Both the position numbers and the translations under genes were made by a program. This document shows, in pieces, positions 19,382 to 40,141 of a stretch of DNA of 64,000 nucleotides. The first letter of the stretch is position 1, and the number at the start of each line of letters is the position of its first letter. The notes under the pieces were generated by a model. It was not told the origin of the DNA and made no database searches. It saw only the letters and a list, made by a program, of their open reading frames with translations. The DNA is from an uncultured Sulfolobales archaeon (lineage in GTDB: Archaea > Thermoproteota > Thermoprotei_A > Sulfolobales > NBVN01), in assembly GCA_938073905.1 (NCBI GenBank), contig CALJEN010000005.1, forward strand, positions 244,088-308,087, written 5' to 3'.

Positions 19382-19460
19382 GCGGCGGTCGTCCAGCCTG
19401 GTCTAGGACGCCGGCCTTCCACGCCGGAGATCCCGGGTTCAAATCCCGGCCGCCGCACCA
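19382..19460 (+). tRNA. tRNA-Gly (anticodon UCC), CCA encoded
   Basis: Acceptor GCGGCGG/CCGCCGC, D stem GTCC/GGAC, anticodon stem CCGGC/GCCGG, loop CTTCCAC, T arm CCGGG-TTCAAAT-CCCGG, then A-CCA. A TTTTTATG box lies ~35 nt upstream. Confidence 0.9.
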
Positions 19461-19466
19461 CTTTCC

Positions 19467-20564
19467 TCAGAGTCTCAGGCTTTCGATAGTACTGAACAGC
19501 GCTCCTATGCTCTTGCTACCGGGTTTCAGATCGTCAATAACTTTTATCCCCCGACGCTCTAGGTCTCTCTTTACGATGTCCGGGACGCGCTCCAAAGACG
19601 CGATTATGAAGTTGTTGGGCTTGAATTTCTCTAGGTACGGTAAAATCTGTGATCGAATCTCTTTCTCCCACTTATCAAACGGGTCTTCTTTGCACTCCAC
19701 GATCAGGTCTATAGGCTTCCCGGAGCGGATGAAATTGCTGGTCCCCTCAAAATGACCCTTTACTACGACGATATCTGGTCTGATTGGGACTCGTTTCCCT
19801 GAAAACATGCTCATTACATGTGCGGTCCTGCTCGGTTGAAATTCGAGCCAAAAGGTTAAATCGCCAAAAGGGGTCTCAGCGATACACGTACTGAACCCCG
19901 ATCCTTGCTCGATCCACCAATACGCTCTTCCTTCAAATAAGTGCTCTTTGAACTTAGAAACTTTGAAAGCGTCGCACAACAGTTTAAGCACCCAGAGCTG
20001 GTATATCCGCTTTCGTGTATTTTTCAGACCCGTTATTCTCCTCCTATCGTCCGGCAGACTCATGAATGTGAAGTAGTACACCTCAGGGTCTTCGAACGCG
20101 TCCCACAACCTTGCTCCCCCTAACCTAATTTCAACGTCTCGCGCTCTCCCGTACTCCTTAACTTCACGGATCATTGGAACAAACACCCGCTCAAACTGCG
20201 TTAGAAGGGACAGCAACGTGGGATCTTTAACGCGAAATCTCAGACCACGTATCTCGTGGATGCGTTTCCTAATTGGTTCATAGTATTCCCACTTTTTAGG
20301 AACTCCCCGTTCGAAATCTTCAATTCTACATTTACATAGAAACCCCACGCCACTCCCTGAGAAGTCAAAGCAGTGTAGTACCTTCCCCGCGACTTTGTCC
20401 ACGGGGATTTCATAAACGACCTCATCCTTGTACTCGCCCGGTAGCTCCCTAACAGCGTAATCGCCTATGTGCACGAGCTCTCTTCCTTCCACAACATAGA
20501 TGTAAGATCCGCCTCTCGTACCCCTGCCCTTGATTTCTCTGACCGTTACTGTCCTCGATTCCAC
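19467..20564 (-). CDS. orphan protein with C-terminal PD-(D/E)xK (restriction-endonuclease-like) motif, on a low-GC island
   Basis: 365-aa GTG-start ORF. RPDIVVVKGH...(~20 aa)...IDLIVECKED fits D-(D/E)xK spacing. Local GC is 37-48% against 62-68% in the flanks, and it uses AAA/GAA/ATT-type codons. Confidence 0.7.
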   Translation of the reverse strand: MESRTVTVREIKGRGTRGGSYIYVVEGRELVHIGDYAVRELPGEYKDEVVYEIPVDKVAGKVLHCFDFSGSGVGFLCKCRIEDFERGVPKKWEYYEPIRKRIHEIRGLRFRVKDPTLLSLLTQFERVFVPMIREVKEYGRARDVEIRLGGARLWDAFEDPEVYYFTFMSLPDDRRRITGLKNTRKRIYQLWVLKLLCDAFKVSKFKEHLFEGRAYWWIEQGSGFSTCIAETPFGDLTFWLEFQPSRTAHVMSMFSGKRVPIRPDIVVVKGHFEGTSNFIRSGKPIDLIVECKEDPFDKWEKEIRSQILPYLEKFKPNNFIIASLERVPDIVKRDLERRGIKVIDDLKPGSKSIGALFSTIESLRL

Positions 20565-20627: not shown

Positions 20628-21992
20628 ATGAAGGAGCCCTACAGGCTCGACTGGAGGGACGTGGCGGCGCTGATCGAGGCCGTGCTGAGAGCGGAGTCTG
20701 TCAAGCCCTCCCAGCAGGCCAAGAGGGACGCGTTCAGGAAGTTCGGGGTGCTGGGGACTAGGAGGGACCCGCCGCTGACGGCCATCTTCTACGACATCAT
20801 GCTCAGGCTGGGAGTGATAGACAGAGTAGTAGAGGACTTGACGGGCTCCAGGAGCCCCCTGCTCCTCGACCCGAGGCTCAGGGCGGCACTCAGGGTCTTC
20901 GCCTACCTGGAGCTATTCGCCAGGGGCGGGGTGGAGTACACCAGGAAGCTCGAGTGCCTGAAGAGAACGGCCGCCTGGCTCTCCTCCAGGTCTCACCCCT
21001 ACACGGGCATGTGGTTCGTCGACGCGGTCAAGGGGCTATCCGGCTACGAGCTCGCCCCCAGGTCGCCGGACGACGAGCTGATGTTCAGGTACCTGCTCCC
21101 GCCGTGGTACGTCAGGAAGGTCTTCGAGCTCGTGGGTCCCGGCGAGGCCGAGAGGCTGCTCGAGTCCTTCGCCGAGAGGCCCAAGATAAGCGTGAGGGTG
21201 AACGTGCTCAAGGCCACGGTCCGGGAGGTCGCGGAGAAGCTGAGGGCAGAGGGGAAGGAGCCCGAGGTCTCGGCGGTAGTCCCGACGGTCCTGAAGTTCG
21301 ACGGTCCCTACAACTTCGACAAGTCCGAGCTCTTCAGGAGCGGGAAGATAGTTATCCAGGAGGAGCCGGCCGCCCTGGCCTCCCTGATACTAGACCCGAA
21401 GCCGGGCGAGACCGTCGTAGACCTAGCGGCGGCGCCCGGGGGCAAGACAGAGCACATGGGGGAGCTCATGGGGAACCGGGGCACCATCTACGCGTTCGAC
21501 GTCGACGAGACCAGGATGAGGAGGCTCGAGGAGCTGGTGAGGAGAGCGGGGATAACAATCGTGAAGACGTTCGTCCGCGACGGCAGGGAGGCGCCGAGGG
21601 TGCTCGGTGAGGAGGTGGCGGACAGGGTGCTGGTCGACGCACCGTGCTCCTCCGACGGCACTATAGCCAGGAACCCCGACCTGAGGTGGAGGCTGATGGA
21701 GGGAGAGGTGGCGAAGCTGGCCCAGCTCCAGTACGAGCTGCTGAAGGCCGCGCTCAGGCTCGTGAAGCCGGGCGGGCGCATACTCTACACCACCTGCACT
21801 CTGCTCAGGGAGGAGAACGAGGACGTGGTCGGGAGGCTCCTCGAGAAGGAGGGCAGGAGGGTCAGGCTGATCTCCCTCGAGGGCCCCTACTCCCCCGGCC
21901 TCCTGCCAGGCACCATGAGGGCGTGGCCGCACGTCCACAAGACCATAGGCTTCTTCTTCGCACTGCTGGAGAAGGCCCGGAGCGGGAGCTGA
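20628..21992 (+). CDS. RNA cytosine-C5 methyltransferase, NOL1/NOP2/Sun (RsmB) family
   Basis: 454 aa with the SAM motif VVDLAAAPGGKT and catalytic motifs DAPCSSDGT and YTTCTL. Confidence 0.9.
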   Translation: MKEPYRLDWRDVAALIEAVLRAESVKPSQQAKRDAFRKFGVLGTRRDPPLTAIFYDIMLRLGVIDRVVEDLTGSRSPLLLDPRLRAALRVFAYLELFARGGVEYTRKLECLKRTAAWLSSRSHPYTGMWFVDAVKGLSGYELAPRSPDDELMFRYLLPPWYVRKVFELVGPGEAERLLESFAERPKISVRVNVLKATVREVAEKLRAEGKEPEVSAVVPTVLKFDGPYNFDKSELFRSGKIVIQEEPAALASLILDPKPGETVVDLAAAPGGKTEHMGELMGNRGTIYAFDVDETRMRRLEELVRRAGITIVKTFVRDGREAPRVLGEEVADRVLVDAPCSSDGTIARNPDLRWRLMEGEVAKLAQLQYELLKAALRLVKPGGRILYTTCTLLREENEDVVGRLLEKEGRRVRLISLEGPYSPGLLPGTMRAWPHVHKTIGFFFALLEKARSGS

Positions 21993-22321
21993 CCTCTTCG
22001 GAGCAGCGAAGGACTGAGACCTGAGCTGAGGGCTGTAACGGGAGGCAGGAGCCCGCGCCGGGCGCTTCTCCAACCACTAGGGGCACGGCGGACAGAGGGT
22101 CTCATCCTGCTAGGAGAGCATCCCAGCCGACGACCCTCTGCGGGAAGGGGTGGCGGACGGTCGAATGCTCCAAGAGCTGCCAGTCGCCGCTCGCATTCGG
22201 ACTTGCCCGGCCACTCCTTTTCAGGAAACAGGAAAAGCGAGACCGCGCTCCGGGTGAAGCCTAATCCAGAGAGCCGACTAGCTGGACGCTCCCGCCCAGC
22301 GGGAGCTGCCGGTTGCCTAGA

Positions 22322-24394
22322 CTACCGCCCCTCCTCTCCGCTCTCGCGCGGCTCCCCTATCACGACCACGTACCTCGCTACTAGGGGCCTGTTACCCAGA
22401 GCTCGGTAGGCCGGGCTCAGGTACTCCTCGACCTTCGTCACCTTGAACATGGCCACCCTGACTTCACGGTTCCGAAGGTCTTCCCACTCAAAGCGTAAAG
22501 ATGTCCCGGATCTAAAGGTGGTTTCCGCGCACTCTAGGAGGCCCAGGAGCTTGTCGAACGGCGGAGGGGCGTGGCCGGAGAAGAGGCCCAGCAACAGGTC
22601 TCTCGGGATCCCGGAGAGCACGGCCCCCAGAGACTCTACGTACCTCGACCCGTTCGCTTCGAACTCGATGGGCAGCCTATCGAGCGTCTCGCTGCGGAAG
22701 AGGCGCACATCCCCGGCTTCCCTGAGGAGGTAGTGCTCTGTCGGGATGGTCTCCGTTAGCCGGTCGACTAGGTCGTTTATGTTCCAGGCGTGCGGAGGGC
22801 AACCGTGCCAGCAGTTGCCCTCCGTGTCGTATCTGAACCCCCAGCGGTACCCGTCCAGAGCCGGAGCCTGTCCCACCTCCCTGTAGTACGGCGCGACTAT
22901 GGGGACCGGCTCGGCGAGCCAGTACTCGCGGCCTCCGTAGCTGTACGTCCTCACGTTCCAGGTGAAGACTATGGCGTCGTACTCGTACGTCATGTTCGTG
23001 GGGACTATGAGAGCTATGTGGCGAATCCCCAGGTTGTTCCAGTAGTCGCGGTGGAATGTGAGGCGGCTAATTGTCGGACCCACGGAGTATCCCTCCTCGC
23101 TCCACAGCAGCGCGCCCGTAAGTGAGAAGCCGAAGCGCTGCTCGGCCCTCATGTAGGTCAGACGGATACGCATCGGGGGCATGTCGCCCGCGTGCGAGAC
23201 TACGGATATCACGAGCGGCTTGTAGACCGTGAACAGCGCTCCCCTGGTCACCGAGTGCTCCCAGTCCACGTAGCCTCCCGGAACGTGGTCGGGGCGGAGG
23301 CACTCCCTCACCACGTAGCCCATGTCCGTCGGGACTCCGGCTCCGCCGCGGCACGGGTTGGGAGCGGCCGTCAGGTAGGCCCAAGCGTCACCCGCGGTCT
23401 GGAACCTGGACTTGTCCAGGAGGTACGCTGTCGTGAAGGTATTCAAGAACCTCGTCCACATGTCCTGGATCACCATGTCCCTGTCGAGGGAGGAGTGCAC
23501 CCACACCCTCTTGGCGAACCATTCCTGCGACGCCTCGGGAAGGCCCCAGTAGTTCTCCCTGTAGCAGACCCCGGTCTCGTAGTAGTGGTAGCCCGGTGGG
23601 CACGTGGACGGAGTAGGCGCAGCCCGTTCAGGCTCGGGGTCCTCCAGACCCAGCTCCCTCCTGGCGGCCTCGAGGGCCCTGGTCAGGTCGACGGGGACCA
23701 GCCTCCCGGCCAGATCCCCGAGCCTTATCACTATCGGTGGGTGCCCCCTCACCACCGCCAGGGGGTCCTCCAGAACCCTCCGGCGCGCGCTGAAGTAGTC
23801 GTGACCTCTCGATGCGTAGTAGTGGAACGATGTGTAGACGTAGCTAGCGATGTAGTGGGCTCCGTCGCCGACGAGCCAGAGGGTAACGGAGACGCTAGGC
23901 ATGGTCACCACACCAAGGCCTTTTTCCTCTAGCGACTTCTCGACCTCGCCAGCGCTCATCCCCCTCCTCACTCCCAGCCACTCCAACCTCCTCAGCCAGT
24001 CCCTGACGCCTTCGTCGAAGTCTATCCTGACCCCGATTTCCCCGCCGAAGCCCGCCCTGAGGGCCCTCCTCTCCCCCCTCCTCAGGAGCCCGCAGAGGTC
24101 CATCGAGTGGAACTCTCCCCCGAACGACACCACGACGATGCCGGCCAGGTCTCTGCAGAGGAGCTGGCCGTCTATCTCGAAGGGCTCCCCTTCGATCAGC
24201 AGTGTCACGCCGTAGCCCTGGGGGAGAGCACCGAGGAGCGCGAGCGGGAGGGCGAAGACGATCATGGACACTGCGAGGGCGAGCCCCAGCTTCCCGAGGT
24301 TCACCCGGTTCCCCGATAGAAGCCGTTCGCGGACATTTATTCCCCCTCGCGGCAGAGGAGGATATAACTTGGTCGGGCGCTCCTCCGCTCGCAC
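22322..24394 (-). CDS. orphan membrane-anchored protein (690 aa), N-terminal TM then large Trp/Tyr/Cys-rich ectodomain
   Basis: Long ORF with genome-typical codons. TM segment LGLALAVSMIVFALPLALLGAL. Paired Cys segments occur, for example STCPPGYHYYETGVC and GNCWHGCPPH. No family recognised. Confidence 0.7.
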   Translation of the reverse strand: MRAEERPTKLYPPLPRGGINVRERLLSGNRVNLGKLGLALAVSMIVFALPLALLGALPQGYGVTLLIEGEPFEIDGQLLCRDLAGIVVVSFGGEFHSMDLCGLLRRGERRALRAGFGGEIGVRIDFDEGVRDWLRRLEWLGVRRGMSAGEVEKSLEEKGLGVVTMPSVSVTLWLVGDGAHYIASYVYTSFHYYASRGHDYFSARRRVLEDPLAVVRGHPPIVIRLGDLAGRLVPVDLTRALEAARRELGLEDPEPERAAPTPSTCPPGYHYYETGVCYRENYWGLPEASQEWFAKRVWVHSSLDRDMVIQDMWTRFLNTFTTAYLLDKSRFQTAGDAWAYLTAAPNPCRGGAGVPTDMGYVVRECLRPDHVPGGYVDWEHSVTRGALFTVYKPLVISVVSHAGDMPPMRIRLTYMRAEQRFGFSLTGALLWSEEGYSVGPTISRLTFHRDYWNNLGIRHIALIVPTNMTYEYDAIVFTWNVRTYSYGGREYWLAEPVPIVAPYYREVGQAPALDGYRWGFRYDTEGNCWHGCPPHAWNINDLVDRLTETIPTEHYLLREAGDVRLFRSETLDRLPIEFEANGSRYVESLGAVLSGIPRDLLLGLFSGHAPPPFDKLLGLLECAETTFRSGTSLRFEWEDLRNREVRVAMFKVTKVEEYLSPAYRALGNRPLVARYVVVIGEPRESGEEGR

Positions 24395-25334
24395 GGGAGA
24401 CCCGAGTAGCAGGCTAGAGGCTCTTCACGAGAACGGGACAAGGCCTACGGGTCCGACTAGGCGCTCCCAGATAGGCAGTGCCGACCGTTGACCGGGCGCG
24501 CCCGCCTCTTAGTAGAGCGGGGCCGAGCCTGGAACCACTAACGAACCTGCGAAGCCAAGTGCAGAAGCTGGCGTATTGGGCGACGAGATAGCAGGCTGTT
24601 GCGAGAAACAGGCAGGTGTAAGCGCGTACGGCGCGTTCCTGGTCTGAGTCTATGCGATTCCCCGACAAGACGAGCTTCCTTTTGCGTCGGCAACGGATAC
24701 TCTCGGGATTCCGAGTCGTGCGGAGGTCTGAAGCCGCTAAGGCTCTAGCCCTGCGTGCTCTCGTAGCTTTCCGTTCCTCTCTTCCACAGCGTTGGCAGCC
24801 GCGGTGTACGCGCTCGTAATTGCCCGGCGGTCTTCAGGGTTTACAGCGCGACCGAGGAGTACCTAAGCCCGACGTGCGGGGAGCCGGATGCTAGGTTCTT
24901 CATAGTTAGGCGCGCGGTTGTGGCAGGTGGGAGGAACGGGGAGAGGCCCCCGAGACTACCATCGGCTGACCGATGGGGATCGCCGCTCCAGCGGAGCAGC
25001 GGGAATGTCTTGAGCACTCTCCGCATCCGCGGTGCACATCCGCAGTGAGAAGCCTTCCCGATCCCCGGCTTCAGTAGGCGACCTATGCTGTCAACTGGAG
25101 GTCTGGCGATCGGGCGGCGACAGGTATCTCTCAGAGTAGGAATGTCCGGCTATGCGGATTCCCTAGAATGGGGTGAAGCTGTCTGCTCACCGGCATCTCC
25201 TAGAGGGTCCGACGGACGCGCGTCCCCCATGTCCCCTAGCCGAGCCCGCGTTCGGCACCGAGATCGCGGACCGGGCACCGCACTCCGTTCCCGGCTTATA
25301 AGTTTCCTTTCCGAACTCTCTACCGGGCGAGGCC

Positions 25335-26783
25335 TTGCTGAGGGGCCTCAAGAGCACGACCGCTGCCCTAGTCCTGGCCTTCCTGGTTGCCCTCGCGGGC
25401 GCCTCCGCGGTTCTCCTCCTCCAAGACCACCTGGCCACAGCGTTGAGCAGCTGGATCGGCGGGGAGCCCAAGTCCGTGGTCAGGCTCGAGGTGAGGATAC
25501 CGAAGGTCGAGGCGGGCCGCTGCTACGTCGTCGTGGAGAGGTTCCCGAGCCCCTCGAGGCCCACCGGGGACGACCTGCCGGAGGTAGTCCACTTCGGTGA
25601 GCACTCTCCCGGTGAGACGGTCGTCGTCAGGGAGAGCCTCCGCGCGACTGTCAGGACCGGCCTAGACCGCGGGACCGGCGGGCGCGCGGACGAGCTCTAC
25701 GAACCCGCCGAGTACCTTGTCATGGTCATGTGCGCCGGCGCGGGCGGCACCTACTACAAGTACGGGGGGATACACGAGGTCTACCCGAGGTCCGCCGAGT
25801 GGACTCACGAGGTGGAAGTGGAGTTCGTGAAGGAGAGGCCGACCAGGTGGGTGTTCGAGAGGCCCTGGTCCGCGGACTCCGCGGCCCAGTCCACGTGCAG
25901 CCTGGGCGTGCTCTCCGGGGGGATATCGAGCAGCTCGAGGTACGTACGTATAGGCATCTTCGAGGTCTACAGGAGCGACGAGGCGTGGAGCCGCGCAACC
26001 GGTGTGTGCCACATCTACGTCAAGGGTCCGATGCTCTACTCCCTCGAGGGCCTCTCCGTTAGCTTCGGGCTGACCGGCGGCCCCCGGCCTTCGGCAGTCT
26101 ACCTCGAGGCCTACTACGACATAAGTCCGCTAGAGGACTGCCGGAGCTATGAATCGAGCTGCCCCGGCTGGAAGAGCGCCGGGAGGAAGCTGGTGGTTGC
26201 CGAGAGGGACGCCGAGACGTCCCCCCTCACCGGCAACCTGAGGGACAGGGTCTACTTCGGGGTCACCTACGGGTGTCTGCAGCGGTGCTACCTTGGCCAG
26301 TTCCAGCTCTGCTGGTGGACTCTGTACCCCAGAGCGATCGGCGAGGTCAGGACGAGCTGGGAGCTCGTCGCGAGGGGGGTGCTCCCGCCGGCGTGGAGCG
26401 AGCGGGACAGCTACCACCCGCCGCCCGCACCGCCCCACGCTTCGAGGGCTTCGGACTACGGCTTGAGGATATTCTTCGGAGAGCACGGCACGGGAGAGGC
26501 GGGCGGAGTGCTCGCGAGCACCGTAGTGCGCTTCACGGTGGCCAGCTCGATCCCGTCTATGCGGGTCCACCGGGAGCTCACGAGAACTACGGTAACGTAC
26601 GTGACGGTCAGCGGGGGGTTCACGGAGCGGGACCGCGCGGTGAACTTCTACGGAGTCGGCAGACACGACTCCTCGTATACGACGCCGTACGTGAAGGTGG
26701 TGAACCCGGCGGGGAGGGCCTACCAGTTCTGGTTCAGGGACGGCAACCCCATGACCTACGAGATCCTACTCAGGTGGCACTAG
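25335..26783 (+). CDS. orphan membrane-anchored/secreted protein (482 aa)
   Basis: TTG-start ORF with a CTTATAAG box ~45 nt upstream. N-terminal TM or signal segment TTAALVLAFLVALAGASAVLLL. It is Trp/Tyr/Cys-rich. No family recognised. Confidence 0.65.
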   Translation: MLRGLKSTTAALVLAFLVALAGASAVLLLQDHLATALSSWIGGEPKSVVRLEVRIPKVEAGRCYVVVERFPSPSRPTGDDLPEVVHFGEHSPGETVVVRESLRATVRTGLDRGTGGRADELYEPAEYLVMVMCAGAGGTYYKYGGIHEVYPRSAEWTHEVEVEFVKERPTRWVFERPWSADSAAQSTCSLGVLSGGISSSSRYVRIGIFEVYRSDEAWSRATGVCHIYVKGPMLYSLEGLSVSFGLTGGPRPSAVYLEAYYDISPLEDCRSYESSCPGWKSAGRKLVVAERDAETSPLTGNLRDRVYFGVTYGCLQRCYLGQFQLCWWTLYPRAIGEVRTSWELVARGVLPPAWSERDSYHPPPAPPHASRASDYGLRIFFGEHGTGEAGGVLASTVVRFTVASSIPSMRVHRELTRTTVTYVTVSGGFTERDRAVNFYGVGRHDSSYTTPYVKVVNPAGRAYQFWFRDGNPMTYEILLRWH

Positions 26784-26901
26784 AGGTAGGAGTCCGGACG
26801 GGGCTGGCTTTTTCCGTAAGCCGCCGACCTCGTGCGAAGGGCTTCTCCGCCCTCCCTCCGAAGACACTCCCGGGGTGGCGGGCTCCGAAAACGCGCGATC
26901 C

Positions 26902-27108
26902 CTAGCCTGGTGCCGCCCTAGCCTTCCTGGGGACGGACGACGGGGGCACTACCGTCGGTACGGGCAGACCGCCCTCCTTCCTCTTCCTGATCCAGTACTC
27001 CCTCTTGTTCCTCTGCCTTGGGGGGAGGTTCCTCTTGGGTCTCGGAGGTATCTTCGGTGTGGAGCTCCTCACCTTACCGGCCTTCGTCATGGACCCGTGC
27101 GTGGGCAC
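26902..27108 (-). CDS. rps30e: 30S ribosomal protein S30e (eS30)
   Basis: 68 aa, GTG start, with HGSMTKAGKVRSSTPKIPPRPK. Confidence 0.85.
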   Translation of the reverse strand: MPTHGSMTKAGKVRSSTPKIPPRPKRNLPPRQRNKREYWIRKRKEGGLPVPTVVPPSSVPRKARAAPG

Positions 27109-27110
27109 CT

Positions 27111-27347
27111 CTACTCACCGGAGTCTGCTCGCCGCTGAGAGTTATAAGCTGAGCGGTCTCCCGGCGTCGGTCCCCGACCCGAGCCCTCCTCGGTCTCGGC
27201 CGGGACTTCCCCTCTGGCCCTCACTCTGTACTTGACGTACCTGTCCACGGGGGAGAACCTTGGCGGACTGGCCACCACCGTGCCGCTCCCACACCTGGGG
27301 CATACCTCCCTCAGGGTGTATGCCCCGCACCTGGGGCACTTCCTTAT
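27111..27347 (-). CDS. nop10: H/ACA RNP protein Nop10 (start codon unresolved)
   Basis: Hand translation in a different frame from track ORF 27142..27339 gives (SSVRFR)IRKCPRCGAYTLREVCPRCGSGTVVASPPRFSPVDRYVKYRV...*, stopping at TAG 27111-27113. The frame opens after TGA at 27366-27368 and holds no ATG/GTG/TTG before the zinc ribbon. ATA at 27347 or GTT at 27359 are the only candidate starts. Confidence 0.8.
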   Translation of the reverse strand: MRKCPRCGAYTLREVCPRCGSGTVVASPPRFSPVDRYVKYRVRARGEVPAETEEGSGRGPTPGDRSAYNSQRRADSGE

Positions 27348-27354
27348 GCGGAAC

Positions 27355-28149
27355 CTAACCGAGCTTCACCCTCTCGAAGCCGAAGCTTACGTTGAGCTTC
27401 CTGCTCATGCTCTCGGCCTTCCTCACTATCTCCGCCAGCCTGCTCTCCAGCACCTTGTAGTCCGTGCCCGCGAGCTCGATCCTGTACCTCGGTGCCCCCT
27501 CGGTGTAGACCCTCACCCTGACGTCGTCTCCGGCGTCCGCGCTCACGGAGCTCAGCAGCTCCCTGATCCTGTAGACTCCGTCCGGCTCGTAGGTGGTCAG
27601 GGTGAGCGCGCCCGCGATCTTGACCTGCTTGAGCTTCTTCACGTGCTTCGGTATCTCGGCCAAGAGCTCCGGGACCCACTCCTCGGGAACTCCCGCTCTC
27701 CTGAAGACCTCCTCTCCCGAGACCAGGGCGTCCTCGAAGGCCGCTAGGACGTCTCCGTACGCGTCCTCCAGCCTCCGCCAAACGTCAGAGTACGCCTCCT
27801 CGAGGCTCCTGCCCAGCCTCTTGGCAACGAGCTCCAGGACTTTCTCCGCCTTCTTCGCCCGCTTCCACTCCTTCAGCTTCCTCTTGCGCTCCGTCTCGGC
27901 GACCCTCTTCAGCGACACGTCGACCTGCCCCTTCCGCCTGTCCACCCTCACGACCTTCACGACGACCTTCTCCCCCTCCTTGATGACCTCCCTTATGTTC
28001 TTGACCCACTTGCTGCTCACCTCGTTCCACGGGAGGTACGCCTCGATCCCGTACTCGTCCAGCTTGACGTAGGCTCCCAGGTCGAATATCCTGTCCACCG
28101 TCGCCACGCAGAGCTCGTTTATCGACGGGAGGCCCTCCCTCCTGACCAA
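27355..28149 (-). CDS. eif2a: translation initiation factor aIF-2 alpha subunit
   Basis: 264 aa with an N-terminal S1 domain (GAYVKLDEYGIEAYLPWNEVSSKWVKNIREV). It sits in the conserved cluster with S27e, L44e and Nop10. Confidence 0.9.
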   Translation of the reverse strand: MVRREGLPSINELCVATVDRIFDLGAYVKLDEYGIEAYLPWNEVSSKWVKNIREVIKEGEKVVVKVVRVDRRKGQVDVSLKRVAETERKRKLKEWKRAKKAEKVLELVAKRLGRSLEEAYSDVWRRLEDAYGDVLAAFEDALVSGEEVFRRAGVPEEWVPELLAEIPKHVKKLKQVKIAGALTLTTYEPDGVYRIRELLSSVSADAGDDVRVRVYTEGAPRYRIELAGTDYKVLESRLAEIVRKAESMSRKLNVSFGFERVKLG

Positions 28150-28155
28150 GGCTCC

Positions 28156-28350
28156 CTACCCCAGGACCCTGACGAGCTCGCCGAGGATCTTGGCCTTGCC
28201 CCCGGTGGGGACGGCCAGCAGGGAGCCGCAGATGAAGCACTTGACCGGGAAGGTGGCGCGGTCGAAGACTATCTGCTCGTTGCCGCACGAGGGGCACTTG
28301 ACCCTCAGGAAGGAGCTTCTCGGCATCGGGATGAGTATCTTCCTCCTCAC
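28156..28350 (-). CDS. rps27e: 30S ribosomal protein S27e (eS27)
   Basis: [43 protein letters not shown] at 28350 forms a GTGA overlap with the L44e stop. The track's longer 86-aa form overlaps L44e. Confidence 0.88.
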
Positions 28351-28634
28351 TTGACCACCTCGACCAAGTCGACCTTCTTGAGCCTCACGCCCTCCCTGTG
28401 CAGCATGTAGCCGCACTTACCGCACTTCAGCCTCAGCACGACCTTCTTGGTCACCTTGGCGAACCTCTTCTGCTCCGGCTTGCGCTTGCTCCCGTAGCCC
28501 TCCTGCTTGCGCCTGTACCTGCGCTCGCCCTCCGCTAGGGTCCTCCTCCTGCCGTGCTTGTATATGGATACGCTATGCTCCGTGTGGACTCCGCACCTGG
28601 GGCAGTACGTCTTGACTACCTTGGGCACCCTCAA
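28347..28634 (-). CDS. rpl44e: 50S ribosomal protein L44e (eL42)
   Basis: 95 aa with [13 protein letters not shown]...KCGKCG. A CTTTAAAAAC box lies upstream on the minus strand. Confidence 0.92.
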
Positions 28635-30145: not shown

Positions 30146-30236
30146 AGGGCCCGTAGCTCAGCCAGGTGGAGCGGCGGACGGCAGGCCGAGGCTCTTAACC
30201 CGTAGGTCCCGGGTTCAAATCCCGGCGGGCCCGCCA
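30146..30236 (+). tRNA. tRNA-Lys (anticodon CUU) with a 14-nt intron in the anticodon stem (non-canonical position), CCA encoded
   Basis: Very similar to tRNA-Lys(UUU) at 6184-6260 (a few substitutions besides the anticodon). The exception is an insertion ACGGGCAGGCCGAG after GGCGG (stem position ~29/30-30/31). Removing it restores stem GCGGG/CCCGT and loop CTCTTAA. A GCTTTTAAG box lies ~30 nt upstream. Confidence 0.85.
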
Positions 30237-37066: not shown

Positions 37067-38554
37067 TCACCCGGATTTCTCGACCTGCTTCTCGATGGAC
37101 TTGCTCACGATGTAGTACATCACTAGACCCCCGACGACCAGTATCACCATCCCCGGATAGGTGTAGAAGGTGTGAAGTCCCTGATCCCACCCCCTGATCC
37201 ACTCGCAGTAGGCTATCCACCAGACGAAGAATATTATCGGGATGACTATGTTCACCCTCACCAGCACGTCCCACCACCTCCCGAGCCTCACGAAGGGCTT
37301 TATGTCCATGTCCATCAGTCCCCTCCTCACCTTGGCCGCGTCGGTGAAGAACGACGCGATCAGGGCTATGAACACCAGGCCCACGCTGAGGCCCACGATG
37401 CCCCAGACGGTGTCGTAGTAGTCGAGCCAGGTGCCGCTGAGCGCCGGCGGGATGCCGCAGACAAGCGCGAGCACACCGGTTATCAGGGCAGCGTGGGGGG
37501 TCTTGAGCCCGAAGTCCTTCAGAGGCCTCATGGCGACCTCGTGGATCGTGACGAGGCTGGTGAGCGCCGCGAACCAGAACGCTATGAAGAAGAGCGCCGC
37601 GTACGCGTGTCCGGCGGGGCCCATCCTCCTGAAGAGCTGCGGCAGAACTATGAAGGCCAGCTTCTCCCCTGCTGCCTTTATGTCTGCGTAGGGCGTTGCG
37701 GAGATCGCGAATATCAGGGGTATTATCGCGGTCCCTGCCATCCAGGCCACGGCCGTGTCGTTGACCACGTTACCGAAGGCGGTGAGGGTCGGGTCGTCGT
37801 TCCTCCGCATCCACGCGCCAGCGCATATGAGGAAGCCCCAGGCTATGCCTATGCTCCATATGACCTGGGACAGCGACTGCATCCAGGTCGCGGGGTCCGC
37901 CAGGGCCTCGAGCCTGGGCACCATGTAGAACTCCAGCCCCTTCTCGGCTCCCGGCAGGGTCAGGGTGAACACGGCTAGGCCCACGGTGAAGACGAAGAGC
38001 AGCGGGAACATGAACCTGGCCACCTGCCCTATCCCCTTGATCCCGAGTGCGGTGATCGCTATGCTCAGCACCATCATGAAGGCCCCTACGCCTAGGGAGG
38101 CCCACGTGTACCCGAAGCCGTCCCAGAAGGCGCTAGCGTTGAAGTCGGGAGCGAAGAACGTCCCGGCTATCGCGTGGAGCATGTAGTAGAATATCCACCC
38201 AGTGACGACCCAGTAGTAGCACATGATCATGAAGTCCGCCCACGCCATCCACATGCCTCCGAAGGCGGCTAGCTTCTTATGTCTCTCGGCCAGGTTGTAG
38301 GGGCCGTGTATGGGGCCCCCGCGCCCGAGCTTCCCGATAGCGTACTCAGCCACGGCAAGCGGGAACCCGACTATCACCAACCACACTAGGTACGTGAAGA
38401 GGAAGCTGCCACCCCCGTTGTTGGCGGCCCTCCAGGAGAACCTCCAGTAGTTCCCGGCGCCTACAGACCACCCAACCGCGGTCATTAGTAGCGCGAAGCT
38501 GCTCCATGCACGTTCGAGGTACCTCGACACCAAGGACTGCGGAGATCTCGACAT
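37067..38554 (-). CDS. sodium-dependent transporter, NSS (neurotransmitter:sodium symporter) family
   Basis: GAGNYWRFSWRAANNGGGSFLFTYL signature and 11-12 TM helices. The true start is ATG at 38554 (MSRSPQSLVSRYLERAW...), behind strong TATA boxes. The first 251 codons of the track's 746-aa ORF are an artefact overlapping the opposite-strand gene. Confidence 0.9.
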   Translation of the reverse strand: MSRSPQSLVSRYLERAWSSFALLMTAVGWSVGAGNYWRFSWRAANNGGGSFLFTYLVWLVIVGFPLAVAEYAIGKLGRGGPIHGPYNLAERHKKLAAFGGMWMAWADFMIMCYYWVVTGWIFYYMLHAIAGTFFAPDFNASAFWDGFGYTWASLGVGAFMMVLSIAITALGIKGIGQVARFMFPLLFVFTVGLAVFTLTLPGAEKGLEFYMVPRLEALADPATWMQSLSQVIWSIGIAWGFLICAGAWMRRNDDPTLTAFGNVVNDTAVAWMAGTAIIPLIFAISATPYADIKAAGEKLAFIVLPQLFRRMGPAGHAYAALFFIAFWFAALTSLVTIHEVAMRPLKDFGLKTPHAALITGVLALVCGIPPALSGTWLDYYDTVWGIVGLSVGLVFIALIASFFTDAAKVRRGLMDMDIKPFVRLGRWWDVLVRVNIVIPIIFFVWWIAYCEWIRGWDQGLHTFYTYPGMVILVVGGLVMYYIVSKSIEKQVEKSG

Positions 38555-38686
38555 CGAGATACCTCGTGTATATAATGCACGAAGGGTATATAAAATTTTT
38601 CCCATGAAGCTTTTTATACTATCCGGTGGTAGGGGACACGGTGATCTAGTTCGCCGCCGGACAGAAGAATCTGGGAGCACCCCATA
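38555..38686. promoter_or_regulatory. AT-rich divergent promoter region between the NSS transporter and the dehydrogenase operon
   Basis: Three TATA-like boxes: GTATATAATG (38567-38576), GGTATATAAAATTTTT (38585-38600) and CTTTTTATACTA (38610-38621). Confidence 0.55.
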
Positions 38687-40141
38687 TTGACGTTCCGCAG
38701 GGGTAGGAGGCTGACCTTCACGTTCGAGGGTAGCCCCCTCGAGGCATACGAGGGAGAGACCGTCGCCGTAGCCCTGTACGCTGCGGGGGTAAGCGTTCTG
38801 TCCTGGAGTTCCGGCCTCGGTAGACCGAGGGGCCTCTTCTGCATGATAGGCAAGTGCAGCAGCTGCTTCATGGTCGTCAACGGGGTCCCGAACGTCAAGA
38901 CCTGTAGGGAGCCCGTCAGGGAGGGCCTCGCGGTAGAGAGGCAGAGGGGGTGGGTCCCCCCGGCGGACGCCGCGGAGCTCGGAGAGGTCGAGACGCGCGA
39001 GCTCGAGACCGACCTCCTCGTGGTCGGCGGCGGCCCGGCGGGGCTCTCGGCGGCCCTCGAGGCGGCCCAGCAGGGGCTCGACGTTCTGGTCGTCGACGAG
39101 CACCTCAGGCTGGGAGGCCAGCTCCTGAAGCAGACCCACAAGTTCTTCGGCAGCGTCGAGCTCTTCGGGGGCCTCAGGGGCTTTCAGATAGCCGGTGAGT
39201 ACCTCAAGAAGCTGGAGTCGAACGGAAGGGTCAGGGTCTTGACCCAGTCCGCGGTCTACGGAGCGTTCAGGGGAGGGCTGGTCGGGGTCGTCGGCAGGGA
39301 CGCGCACTACGTGGTGAAGCCGAGGGCCGTGGTGGGGACTCCCGGAGCCTCCGAGAGGTACCTGGACTTCGCCAACAACGACCTGCCGGGCGTCGTGGGG
39401 GCGGGCGGAGTCCAGACGGTGATGAACGAGTTAGGTGTCAAGCCGGGCGAGAGGGCCCTAGTGGTGGGCTCCGGCAACGTGGGCCTGATAATCTCCTACC
39501 AGCTGCTGCAGGCCGGCGTGGCCGTCGAGGCCGTGGTGGAGATACTGCCCGAGGTGGGCGGCTGGTTCGTCCACGCCGCGAAGGTGAGGAGGTACGGGAT
39601 CCCGATCCTCCTGAGGCACACCCTGAAGGCGGTCTACGGGACCGAGAAGGTCGAGGAGGCCGAGGTGGTCGAGGTGGACGAGGGGTTCAACCCCGTGCCC
39701 GGGTCCGAGAAGAGGTTCAAGGTGGACTTGGTCTTGCTGGCAGTGGGTCTGGAGCCGGACGCCAGGCTGTTCGCCCAGTGCGGTGCGGTGATGAGGTGGT
39801 CTCCGGACCTCGGCGGCCTAGTCCCCCTCAGGACGCCGGGTCTCGAGACCTCGGTGAGGAACCTGTACGTGGCGGGGGACGCCTCCGGGATAGAGGAGGC
39901 GACCACGGCCATCATCGAGGGCCGGGTGGCCGCTCTATCCGCCGTCTCCAAGCTGACCGAGGGGTCCAGAGCCGGCAGAGCCGCGGAGGAGGCGGAGAGG
40001 CTGAACAGGTTCCTGTGGGAGGAGTACAGGGCCTCACCCCTGCTCGCTAGAGCGAGGCGTGGGAAGCAGTCCGTCACCGTGAGCGAGGAGGAGATGGAGA
40101 AGGTGAGGGCCCTCAGCCCGCCACCGGTTTCGTTCGGGTGA
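38687..40141 (+). CDS. FAD/NAD(P)-binding oxidoreductase with N-terminal 2Fe-2S-type domain (alpha-like subunit of archaeal L-proline dehydrogenase / opine oxidase type complexes)
   Basis: 484 aa, TTG start. N-terminus FTFEGSPLEAYEGETVAVAL...GLFCMIGKCSSCFMVVNGVPNVKTC. Dinucleotide folds VVGGGPAGLSAALEA and VVGSGNVGL. Confidence 0.7.
   Translation: MTFRRGRRLTFTFEGSPLEAYEGETVAVALYAAGVSVLSWSSGLGRPRGLFCMIGKCSSCFMVVNGVPNVKTCREPVREGLAVERQRGWVPPADAAELGEVETRELETDLLVVGGGPAGLSAALEAAQQGLDVLVVDEHLRLGGQLLKQTHKFFGSVELFGGLRGFQIAGEYLKKLESNGRVRVLTQSAVYGAFRGGLVGVVGRDAHYVVKPRAVVGTPGASERYLDFANNDLPGVVGAGGVQTVMNELGVKPGERALVVGSGNVGLIISYQLLQAGVAVEAVVEILPEVGGWFVHAAKVRRYGIPILLRHTLKAVYGTEKVEEAEVVEVDEGFNPVPGSEKRFKVDLVLLAVGLEPDARLFAQCGAVMRWSPDLGGLVPLRTPGLETSVRNLYVAGDASGIEEATTAIIEGRVAALSAVSKLTEGSRAGRAAEEAERLNRFLWEEYRASPLLARARRGKQSVTVSEEEMEKVRALSPPPVSFG

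Follow-up and report, generated by a model that had tools for sequence, protein, structure and literature searches.

In a 64,000-nucleotide stretch of contig CALJEN010000005.1 from an uncultured Sulfolobales archaeon (the window), two divergently oriented open reading frames (ORFs) lie between blocks of housekeeping genes. We favor, with moderate confidence, the reading that they are two independent, unrelated genes, neighbors only here, whose products of 660 and 482 amino acids (aa) are envelope proteins either secreted or anchored by the N-terminus, rather than the co-regulated two-gene unit that an earlier note on this DNA had proposed. By profile similarity, the 660-aa protein is assigned to a small unnamed Desulfurococcales family that includes Tagg_0763 of Thermosphaera aggregans, while the N-terminus of the 482-aa protein fits the pattern of archaeal class III signal peptides, making it a candidate substrate of the prepilin peptidase PibD. 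Overall, we regard these hypothetical, lineage-specific surface proteins as fairly ordinary and their structural novelty as modest.

Two Real Genes in Separate Transcription Units

The 4.9-kb stretch between the NSUN gene and the S30e cluster holds two ORFs, one on the minus strand (22322-24394, 690 aa) and one on the plus strand (25335-26783, 482 aa), just where the earlier note had placed them, and its flanks, an NSUN-type methyltransferase on one side and S30e-Nop10-aIF2alpha on the other, are also as described there. Both ORFs are real native genes, since their GC content at third codon positions (GC3; 0.84 for the 660-aa gene and 0.89 for the 482-aa gene) is housekeeping-like (0.91 in the NSUN gene) and conserved homologs exist at 28-54% identity. 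The spacer between them has a GC3 of 0.62-0.64 with all frames alike, and the overall GC content of the region is 62-68%.

A functional, co-regulated envelope pair with a shared divergent control region would agree with the divergent orientation of the genes, whose start codons are about 1,030 bp apart, and with the prediction that both proteins are membrane-anchored. However, the two families are unrelated (no similarity by BLASTP; hhalign probability 0.07%), and at no further locus do members of the two lie side by side, which holds for about 12 other loci with a 660-aa family gene and five others with a 482-aa family gene (about 17 in all). The earlier note had itself named such a lack of co-occurrence beforehand as a point that would weaken its proposal. 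Their taxonomic spreads differ as well, the 660-aa family spanning several genera plus Pyrodictiaceae and the 482-aa family being found in three GTDB species and this sample. Further, each gene has a TATA box beside its own start codon, the two boxes being about 955 bp apart, and the spacer carries no conserved element; a shared control region is thus not supported. Because each gene has its own TATA box and a terminator-like oligo-T tract soon after its stop codon, we regard them as two separate single-gene transcription units. The proposed two-gene module is not a conserved unit, the genes being neighbors in this genome only, and a functional pair is very unlikely.

The coordinates of the two genes and of their surroundings are listed in Table 1. 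For the minus-strand gene, the length of 690 aa given earlier applies to the longest ORF, but not to the likely gene product: translation most likely starts at GTG 24304, giving a predicted protein of 660 aa (MNLGKLGL...), because a conserved TATA box precedes this codon and the paralog P0002 has a matching start. The database version of the protein (P0001) begins at this codon (MNLGK), P0002 begins at the equivalent position (MSPGKLGL), and the TATA box is kept upstream of the paralog in locus L001 as ATAAATA. The start of the longest ORF, at 24394, lies upstream of the TATA box, and the DNA similarity between the window gene and the paralog locus stops at 24304; the N-terminal extension of the longest ORF is probably not translated. 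The TATA box of the 482-aa gene is kept upstream of its homolog in locus L002 and is degenerate in L003 and L006.

Table 1. Features of the two genes, their flanks and the model of the 660-aa protein. Positions are those of the window unless residues are given.
Feature	Position	Strand	Basis or remark
NSUN/RsmB-type methyltransferase gene	20628-21992		Pfam PF01189, E 2e-54
Terminator-like stem and T-rich tail	22224..22251	-	about 70 nt downstream of the 660-aa stop codon
660-aa protein gene (P0001)	22322..24304	-	ORF; GC3 0.84; paralog P0002; 44 representative clusters; AlphaFold2 model
N-terminal hydrophobic helix, residues 3-24	24233..24298	-	Kyte-Doolittle scan and AlphaFold2 helix
30-codon N-terminal extension of longest ORF	24305..24394	-	TATA box inside; database protein and paralog start downstream
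TATA box AATAAAT	24335-24341	-	sequence; 31 nt upstream of GTG 24304
Spacer	24342..25295	.	about 950 bp; 63% GC; non-coding
TATA box TTATAA within CTTATAAGTTTCC	25296..25301	+	34 nt upstream of TTG 25335
482-aa protein gene (P0003)	25335..26783	+	ORF; GC3 0.89; homologs at 31-47% tblastn identity; TTG start 25335
Candidate PibD site R3-G4|L5, then hydrophobic H-domain	25341..25427	+	RGL conservation; FlaFind-like pattern
Short stem, then T5 tract, terminator-like	26791..26815	+	directly 3' of the 482-aa stop codon
S30e gene	26902-27108	-	member of ribosomal/aIF2alpha block
Nop10 gene	27111-~27350	-	
aIF2alpha gene	27355-28149	-	
Transmembrane helix	residues 3-24		660-aa AlphaFold2 model
Alpha/beta domain	residues 31-218		660-aa AlphaFold2 model
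Linker	residues 219-239		660-aa AlphaFold2 model
Alpha+beta region	residues 240-350		660-aa AlphaFold2 model
Sheet of five very long beta-strands, 14-28 residues each	residues 357-479		660-aa AlphaFold2 model
Mixed C-terminal region	up to residue 650		660-aa AlphaFold2 model

A Desulfurococcales Family of 660-aa Proteins

A word-indexed search with the 660-aa protein returned itself and one paralog, P0002 (54% identity), which probably sits on the same contig, as the longest contig recorded for it is equal in length (432,288 bp), and a metagenome scan added seven further loci at 28-32% identity. The family was widened by a HMMER profile search of 1.84 billion representatives, in which 44 clusters passed E <= 1e-3 and 17 of these also E <= 1e-30. 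The proteins that are full-length range from 595 to 704 aa, and a hydropathy scan places an N-terminal transmembrane (TM) helix in every one of them. The named members, from Thermosphaera aggregans (Tagg_0763), Thermogladius sp., Zestosphaera metagenome-assembled genomes (MAGs), Ignisphaera aggregans and Pyrofollis japonicus, are all annotated as "hypothetical protein."

P0021, the cluster representative for Tagg_0763 of T. aggregans DSM 11486 (ADG91036.1; UniProt D5U1N6), was recovered by the profile search with an E-value of 3e-33. The window protein resembles the Tagg_0763 family in length (about 600-700 aa), in its N-terminal TM helix, in being encoded by a stand-alone gene and in profile similarity over the full length, although it is only about 22% identical to Tagg_0763. 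No mention of Tagg_0763 was found in the literature, and no member of the family has a known function. The 28 aligned members gave no meaningful match in Pfam, the family has none in NCBIfam, its profile matched no PDB sequence, and the single match in PHROGs, with paralog P0002, was non-significant (E 0.035). The claim of the earlier note that neither protein belongs to a recognizable family therefore holds against Pfam, NCBIfam, PHROGs and PDB, and no homology to known S-layer, pilin or glycosidase families was found for either protein.

No neighbor of the 660-aa family genes is conserved, and most neighbors are core genes; for example, the homolog in L018 lies between the Spt5-L11-L1-L10 and S13-S4-S11-RpoD clusters, and that in L021 adjoins RadA. 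On the Thermosphaera-like contig of L021 (L021:10001-12962), the family gene is also convergent with a PibD/FlaK gene (Peptidase_A24 plus Arc_PepC_II), the two being 38 bp apart. This linkage to PibD was seen in L021 alone and was absent from the other loci examined, and it was rejected as a trait of the family. Unusually long intergenic regions (466-1,200 bp) lie upstream of the family genes in L001, L015, L016, L018 and the window; other family genes have 90-190 bp. No 5' element is conserved upstream of these genes beyond close relatives, and the long upstream regions have no common sequence.

AlphaFold2, supplied with an alignment of 28 sequences taken from the hits of the representative profile search, gave a confident model of the 660-aa protein, with a mean predicted local distance difference test score (pLDDT) of 85.8 and a predicted template modeling score of 0.85. 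The predicted regions, which include a sheet of five very long strands, are given in Table 1. With this model, Foldseek returned no significant match among PDB structures or viral models (BFVD), and some structural novelty lies in such a confidently predicted protein for which Foldseek finds no PDB relative. The N-terminal helix could serve as a signal anchor or as a cleavable Sec signal; GYGVTL is identical in the window protein and P0002, and G-Y-G|V within it is a possible cleavage site.

In the alignment, W348, G392, G397, D443 and W462 are invariant (28/28), and W283, P363, Y440, P466, P472 and P640 are nearly so. The conserved positions are thus nearly all Trp, Gly, Pro or Tyr, with D443 as the single invariant acidic residue, and Ser, His, Cys and Glu are not among the residues conserved across the 28 sequences. 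Such a pattern appears to be structural rather than catalytic. The cysteines C318 and C335 each occur in 12 of the 28 sequences.

A Candidate Prepilin-Peptidase Substrate of 482 aa

The 482-aa protein begins with M-L-R(-2)-G(-1)|L-K-S-T, followed by a hydrophobic helix at about residues 8-31; the Kyte-Doolittle segment covers residues 4-31 with a peak of 2.7, in keeping with an H-domain of about 20 residues immediately behind the site. Archaeal prepilin-peptidase substrates have Gly, Ala or Ser at -1 and a charged residue at -2, the cleavage site being located before the hydrophobic domain, and PibD is little stringent at +1 and +3 (PMC4371748). The N-terminus of the 482-aa protein is consistent with this description, because position -2 is charged, position -1 is Gly and the hydrophobic domain follows the site, features that it shares with type IV pilins, archaellins, Sulfolobus bindosome proteins and FlaFind-positive proteins. 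Like the bindosome proteins, it is large. A FlaFind-like regular expression matched this ORF alone among the high-GC3 ORFs of the window. Across the family, 4/6 members begin with M-x-R-G-L-(K/Q)-(S/N)-T and continue with about 22 hydrophobic residues, RGL being invariant in P0003-P0005 and present in L006.

The protein database contains the 482-aa protein itself and two homologs at 45-47% identity, and a scan of GTDB species genomes revealed four loci in three species, namely an uncultured "Sulfolobales" MAG (two copies), a Desulfurococcaceae MAG and Ca. Zestomicrobium tamdykulense, itself a member of the Desulfurococcaceae (PMC11467010). The 482-aa family is much narrower than the 660-aa family. 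Its six sequences have no significant match in Pfam, NCBIfam, PHROGs or PDB, and C63, C133 and C225 are invariant in all six. The AlphaFold2 model, made from a three-sequence alignment, is poor (pLDDT 43.7 overall): a beta-sandwich is predicted with moderate confidence at about residues 46-165, where the block means are about 50-87, the aromatic-rich C-terminal region has no resolved fold, and Foldseek found generic beta-sandwich matches, none of them significant. No conserved neighbor was seen around any family member, and no PibD gene was found within the window. Association with pilus-assembly genes is not obligatory for archaeal pilins. Many genes with class III signals are located away from those for assembly (PMC4371748).

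Two independent homologs of the 482-aa protein, one in the uncultured Sulfolobales MAG and one in Ca. Zestomicrobium (L006:9879-10070 and L007:2521-2700), are each one base short relative to the intact members. The two gaps, at alignment columns 156 and 161, are no more than 5 nt apart and fall exactly between the hydrophobic helix and the first beta domain, and the downstream ORF restarts with Met in both (MVRLEI and MIKLEI). They could be due to assembly error, pseudogenes or a recurrent frameshift site. A 681-aa ORF beside the homolog in L007 was considered as a 660-aa family member and rejected, as it has no similarity to either family; our impression is that its sequence reads like a topoisomerase.

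Location, Topology and Possible Roles

The single N-terminal hydrophobic anchor that the earlier note had assigned to each protein is borne out by the hydropathy scan, which places one such helix in every family member as well. In both window proteins, basic residues lie before the helix and acidic ones after it; by the positive-inside rule, the predicted topology is N-in/C-out. The four cysteine motifs quoted in the note (including GNCWHGCPPH) are all present, although the cysteines are only partly conserved across the families. An envelope or extracytoplasmic location is plausible from the N-terminal helix, the flanking charges and the partly conserved cysteines. The description of both proteins as Trp/Tyr-rich is true to a modest degree only: Trp makes up 2.5% and Tyr 5.1-5.6%, compared with window means of 1.4 +/- 0.9 and 3.6 +/- 1.6, an excess of about 1.2 standard deviations. 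The highest Trp content among window ORFs longer than 300 aa (3.4%) belongs to a 746-aa ORF at 37067-39307 on the minus strand.

Both are lineage-specific proteins of hyperthermophilic archaea of the Desulfurococcales type. We hypothesize that each protein is inserted through the Sec pathway via its single N-terminal hydrophobic helix, so that its bulk would be located outside the cytoplasmic membrane. The 660-aa protein might then have a non-enzymatic scaffold or binding role between the membrane and the S-layer, since the conserved positions are Trp, Gly, Pro and Tyr with one invariant acidic residue. Its family is small and vertically inherited, residing among the housekeeping genes of Thermosphaera, Thermogladius, Zestosphaera, Ignisphaera, Pyrofollis and relatives. 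The 482-aa protein is most likely cleaved by PibD, after which its hydrophobic N-terminal helix would hold it in place or serve for its assembly, analogous to the bindosome and other FlaFind-positive proteins.

Several observations weigh against this reading of the two genes as encoding independent envelope proteins. The location and topology of both proteins are read from hydropathy and charge only, and disulfides are common also in cytoplasmic proteins of hyperthermophilic crenarchaea, hence the cysteines do not prove export. N-glycosylation sequons are few, with two in the 660-aa protein and none in the 482-aa protein. To argue for a non-enzymatic role from missing conservation is to use weak evidence. 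As for processing by PibD, the class III motif is absent in 2/6 members of the 482-aa family, in which -2 is uncharged (W-G in L005 and N-G in L007), and Lys or Gln at +2 is unusual; in both respects, as well as in lacking sequence or fold similarity, the 482-aa protein is unlike pilins or binding proteins. The model places a helix at residues 8-41 before the beta-sandwich, but at residues 20-45 its pLDDT is below 50, too poor to show a pilin-like fold. Moreover, no PilB/PilC-type genes were found near 482-aa family members at the loci with Pfam-annotated neighbors.

Further-reaching roles are conceivable. The fold of the Tagg_0763-like family might be one not described before, and the family might belong, by vertical inheritance, to the core of the Desulfurococcales envelope, for example as membrane anchor or spacer of the poorly known S-layers. 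The 482-aa protein would then be a large subunit, processed by PibD, of a surface assembly that is likewise undescribed. We put this proposal forward tentatively and think it rather improbable. Since the cell envelopes of Desulfurococcales are poorly characterized at the molecular level, the 660-aa family, which is conserved, confidently modeled and predicted to be membrane-anchored, merits structural and cell-surface work, and a cultured species with a member (Tagg_0763) is available in T. aggregans. With the 482-aa family, the already large set of predicted prepilin-peptidase substrates grows further, and in other respects the locus resembles the "hypothetical protein" share of archaeal genomes in general.

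Alternative Explanations

Instead of structural envelope components, one or both proteins might be secreted or anchored hydrolases (glycosidase or protease) with a new fold, feeding these peptide- and sugar-fermenting archaea. Export is probable for both, and both are rich in aromatic residues of the kind often found where carbohydrates are bound. In the 482-aa model, the beta-sandwich near the N-terminus has a weak, non-significant likeness to CBM20-type starch-binding domains (E 0.1-0.3). However, neither protein matched an enzyme family, no sugar or peptide transporter is consistently nearby, and in the 660-aa family the sole invariant acidic residue, D443, is accompanied by no conserved Ser, His, Cys or Glu, so that we judge the hydrolase explanation unlikely. 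It is also conceivable that the long strands of the 660-aa protein rearrange into the membrane, as in a beta-sheet pore former or fusogen. The top Foldseek matches to its model, all non-significant, include proaerolysin, cholesterol-dependent cytolysins, viral spikes and Gram-positive pilins, and in distant members of the family a hydrophobic hairpin lies close to the C-terminus. The likeness to these proteins is superficial, consisting of very long antiparallel beta-strands (five of 14-28 residues in the window protein), and the test for structural similarity to an aerolysin-type or cytolysin-type beta-pore-forming module was negative: all matches have E >= 0.045, a probability <= 0.03 and a template modeling score of about 0.05. 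Unlike the 660-aa model, aerolysin, cholesterol-dependent cytolysins and Gram-positive pilins lack an N-terminal TM anchor and alpha/beta domain. In the window protein, the C-terminal helices that match the hairpin are amphipathic, with mean pLDDT of 91-94 in blocks of 10 residues, and were taken as packed in the core, and the gene is stably inherited among housekeeping genes instead of occurring with toxin or mobile genes. A pore former or fusogen is therefore highly improbable.

Orphan genes that have conserved housekeeping blocks on both sides and a long non-coding stretch next to them would also be expected of a remnant of a virus or mobile element whose proteins are viral glycoproteins or receptor-binding proteins. 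Against such an origin, the GC content and GC3 of the island match those of the host genome, no direct repeats were found flanking it, IMG/VR contains no relative of either family, BFVD structures gave no match, the only PHROGs match is the non-significant one of P0002 mentioned above, and the 660-aa homologs reside in core-gene contexts. We consider this explanation largely refuted and hardly credible.

The Spacer and Other Features of the Window

The spacer between the promoters is non-coding, with no codon periodicity, in a genome that is otherwise compact. It was considered as a structured RNA, a C/D sRNA or a small gene, and these candidates were rejected: a search of Rfam gave no match apart from a spurious hepatitis C virus element (E 0.25), folding z-scores stayed within +/- 2.5 and showed no folding signal, no TGATGA C box was found, and the small ORFs of the spacer had no match in Pfam. 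A replication origin was rejected as well, since the spacer has neither an AT-rich segment nor repeated boxes resembling origin recognition boxes (ORBs); the palindrome CTCCAGCGGAG at about 24985 does not match what we take to be the ORB consensus. No similarity to the upstream regions of homologs and no notable repeats were found in the spacer.

Between the two genes there was an excess of reverse-complement matches whose offset was constant, at about 3290 nt. Both genes encode the tetrapeptides VLSG and SRYV (22610-22656 and 25904-25946), with the same preferred codons but in swapped order; the offset matches were traced to them, judged to be chance and rejected as a signal.

Beyond the two genes, the S30e-Nop10-aIF2alpha-S27e-L44e cluster occupies 26902-28634 on the minus strand. 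A 365-aa ORF (19467-20564, minus strand) adjoins tRNA-Gly(TCC) at 19382-19460 and lies in a sharp island of low GC content (48% vs. about 65%). It had no match in Pfam, NCBIfam or PHROGs, carries a PD...(D/E)xK-like motif (RPDIVVV ... DLIVECK) and looks like horizontally acquired DNA integrated at the tRNA. Another tRNA, of 90 nt, was detected by Rfam at 30147-30236 on the plus strand (50 bits); ARAGORN assigns it no anticodon, and it is probably an intron-containing archaeal tRNA.

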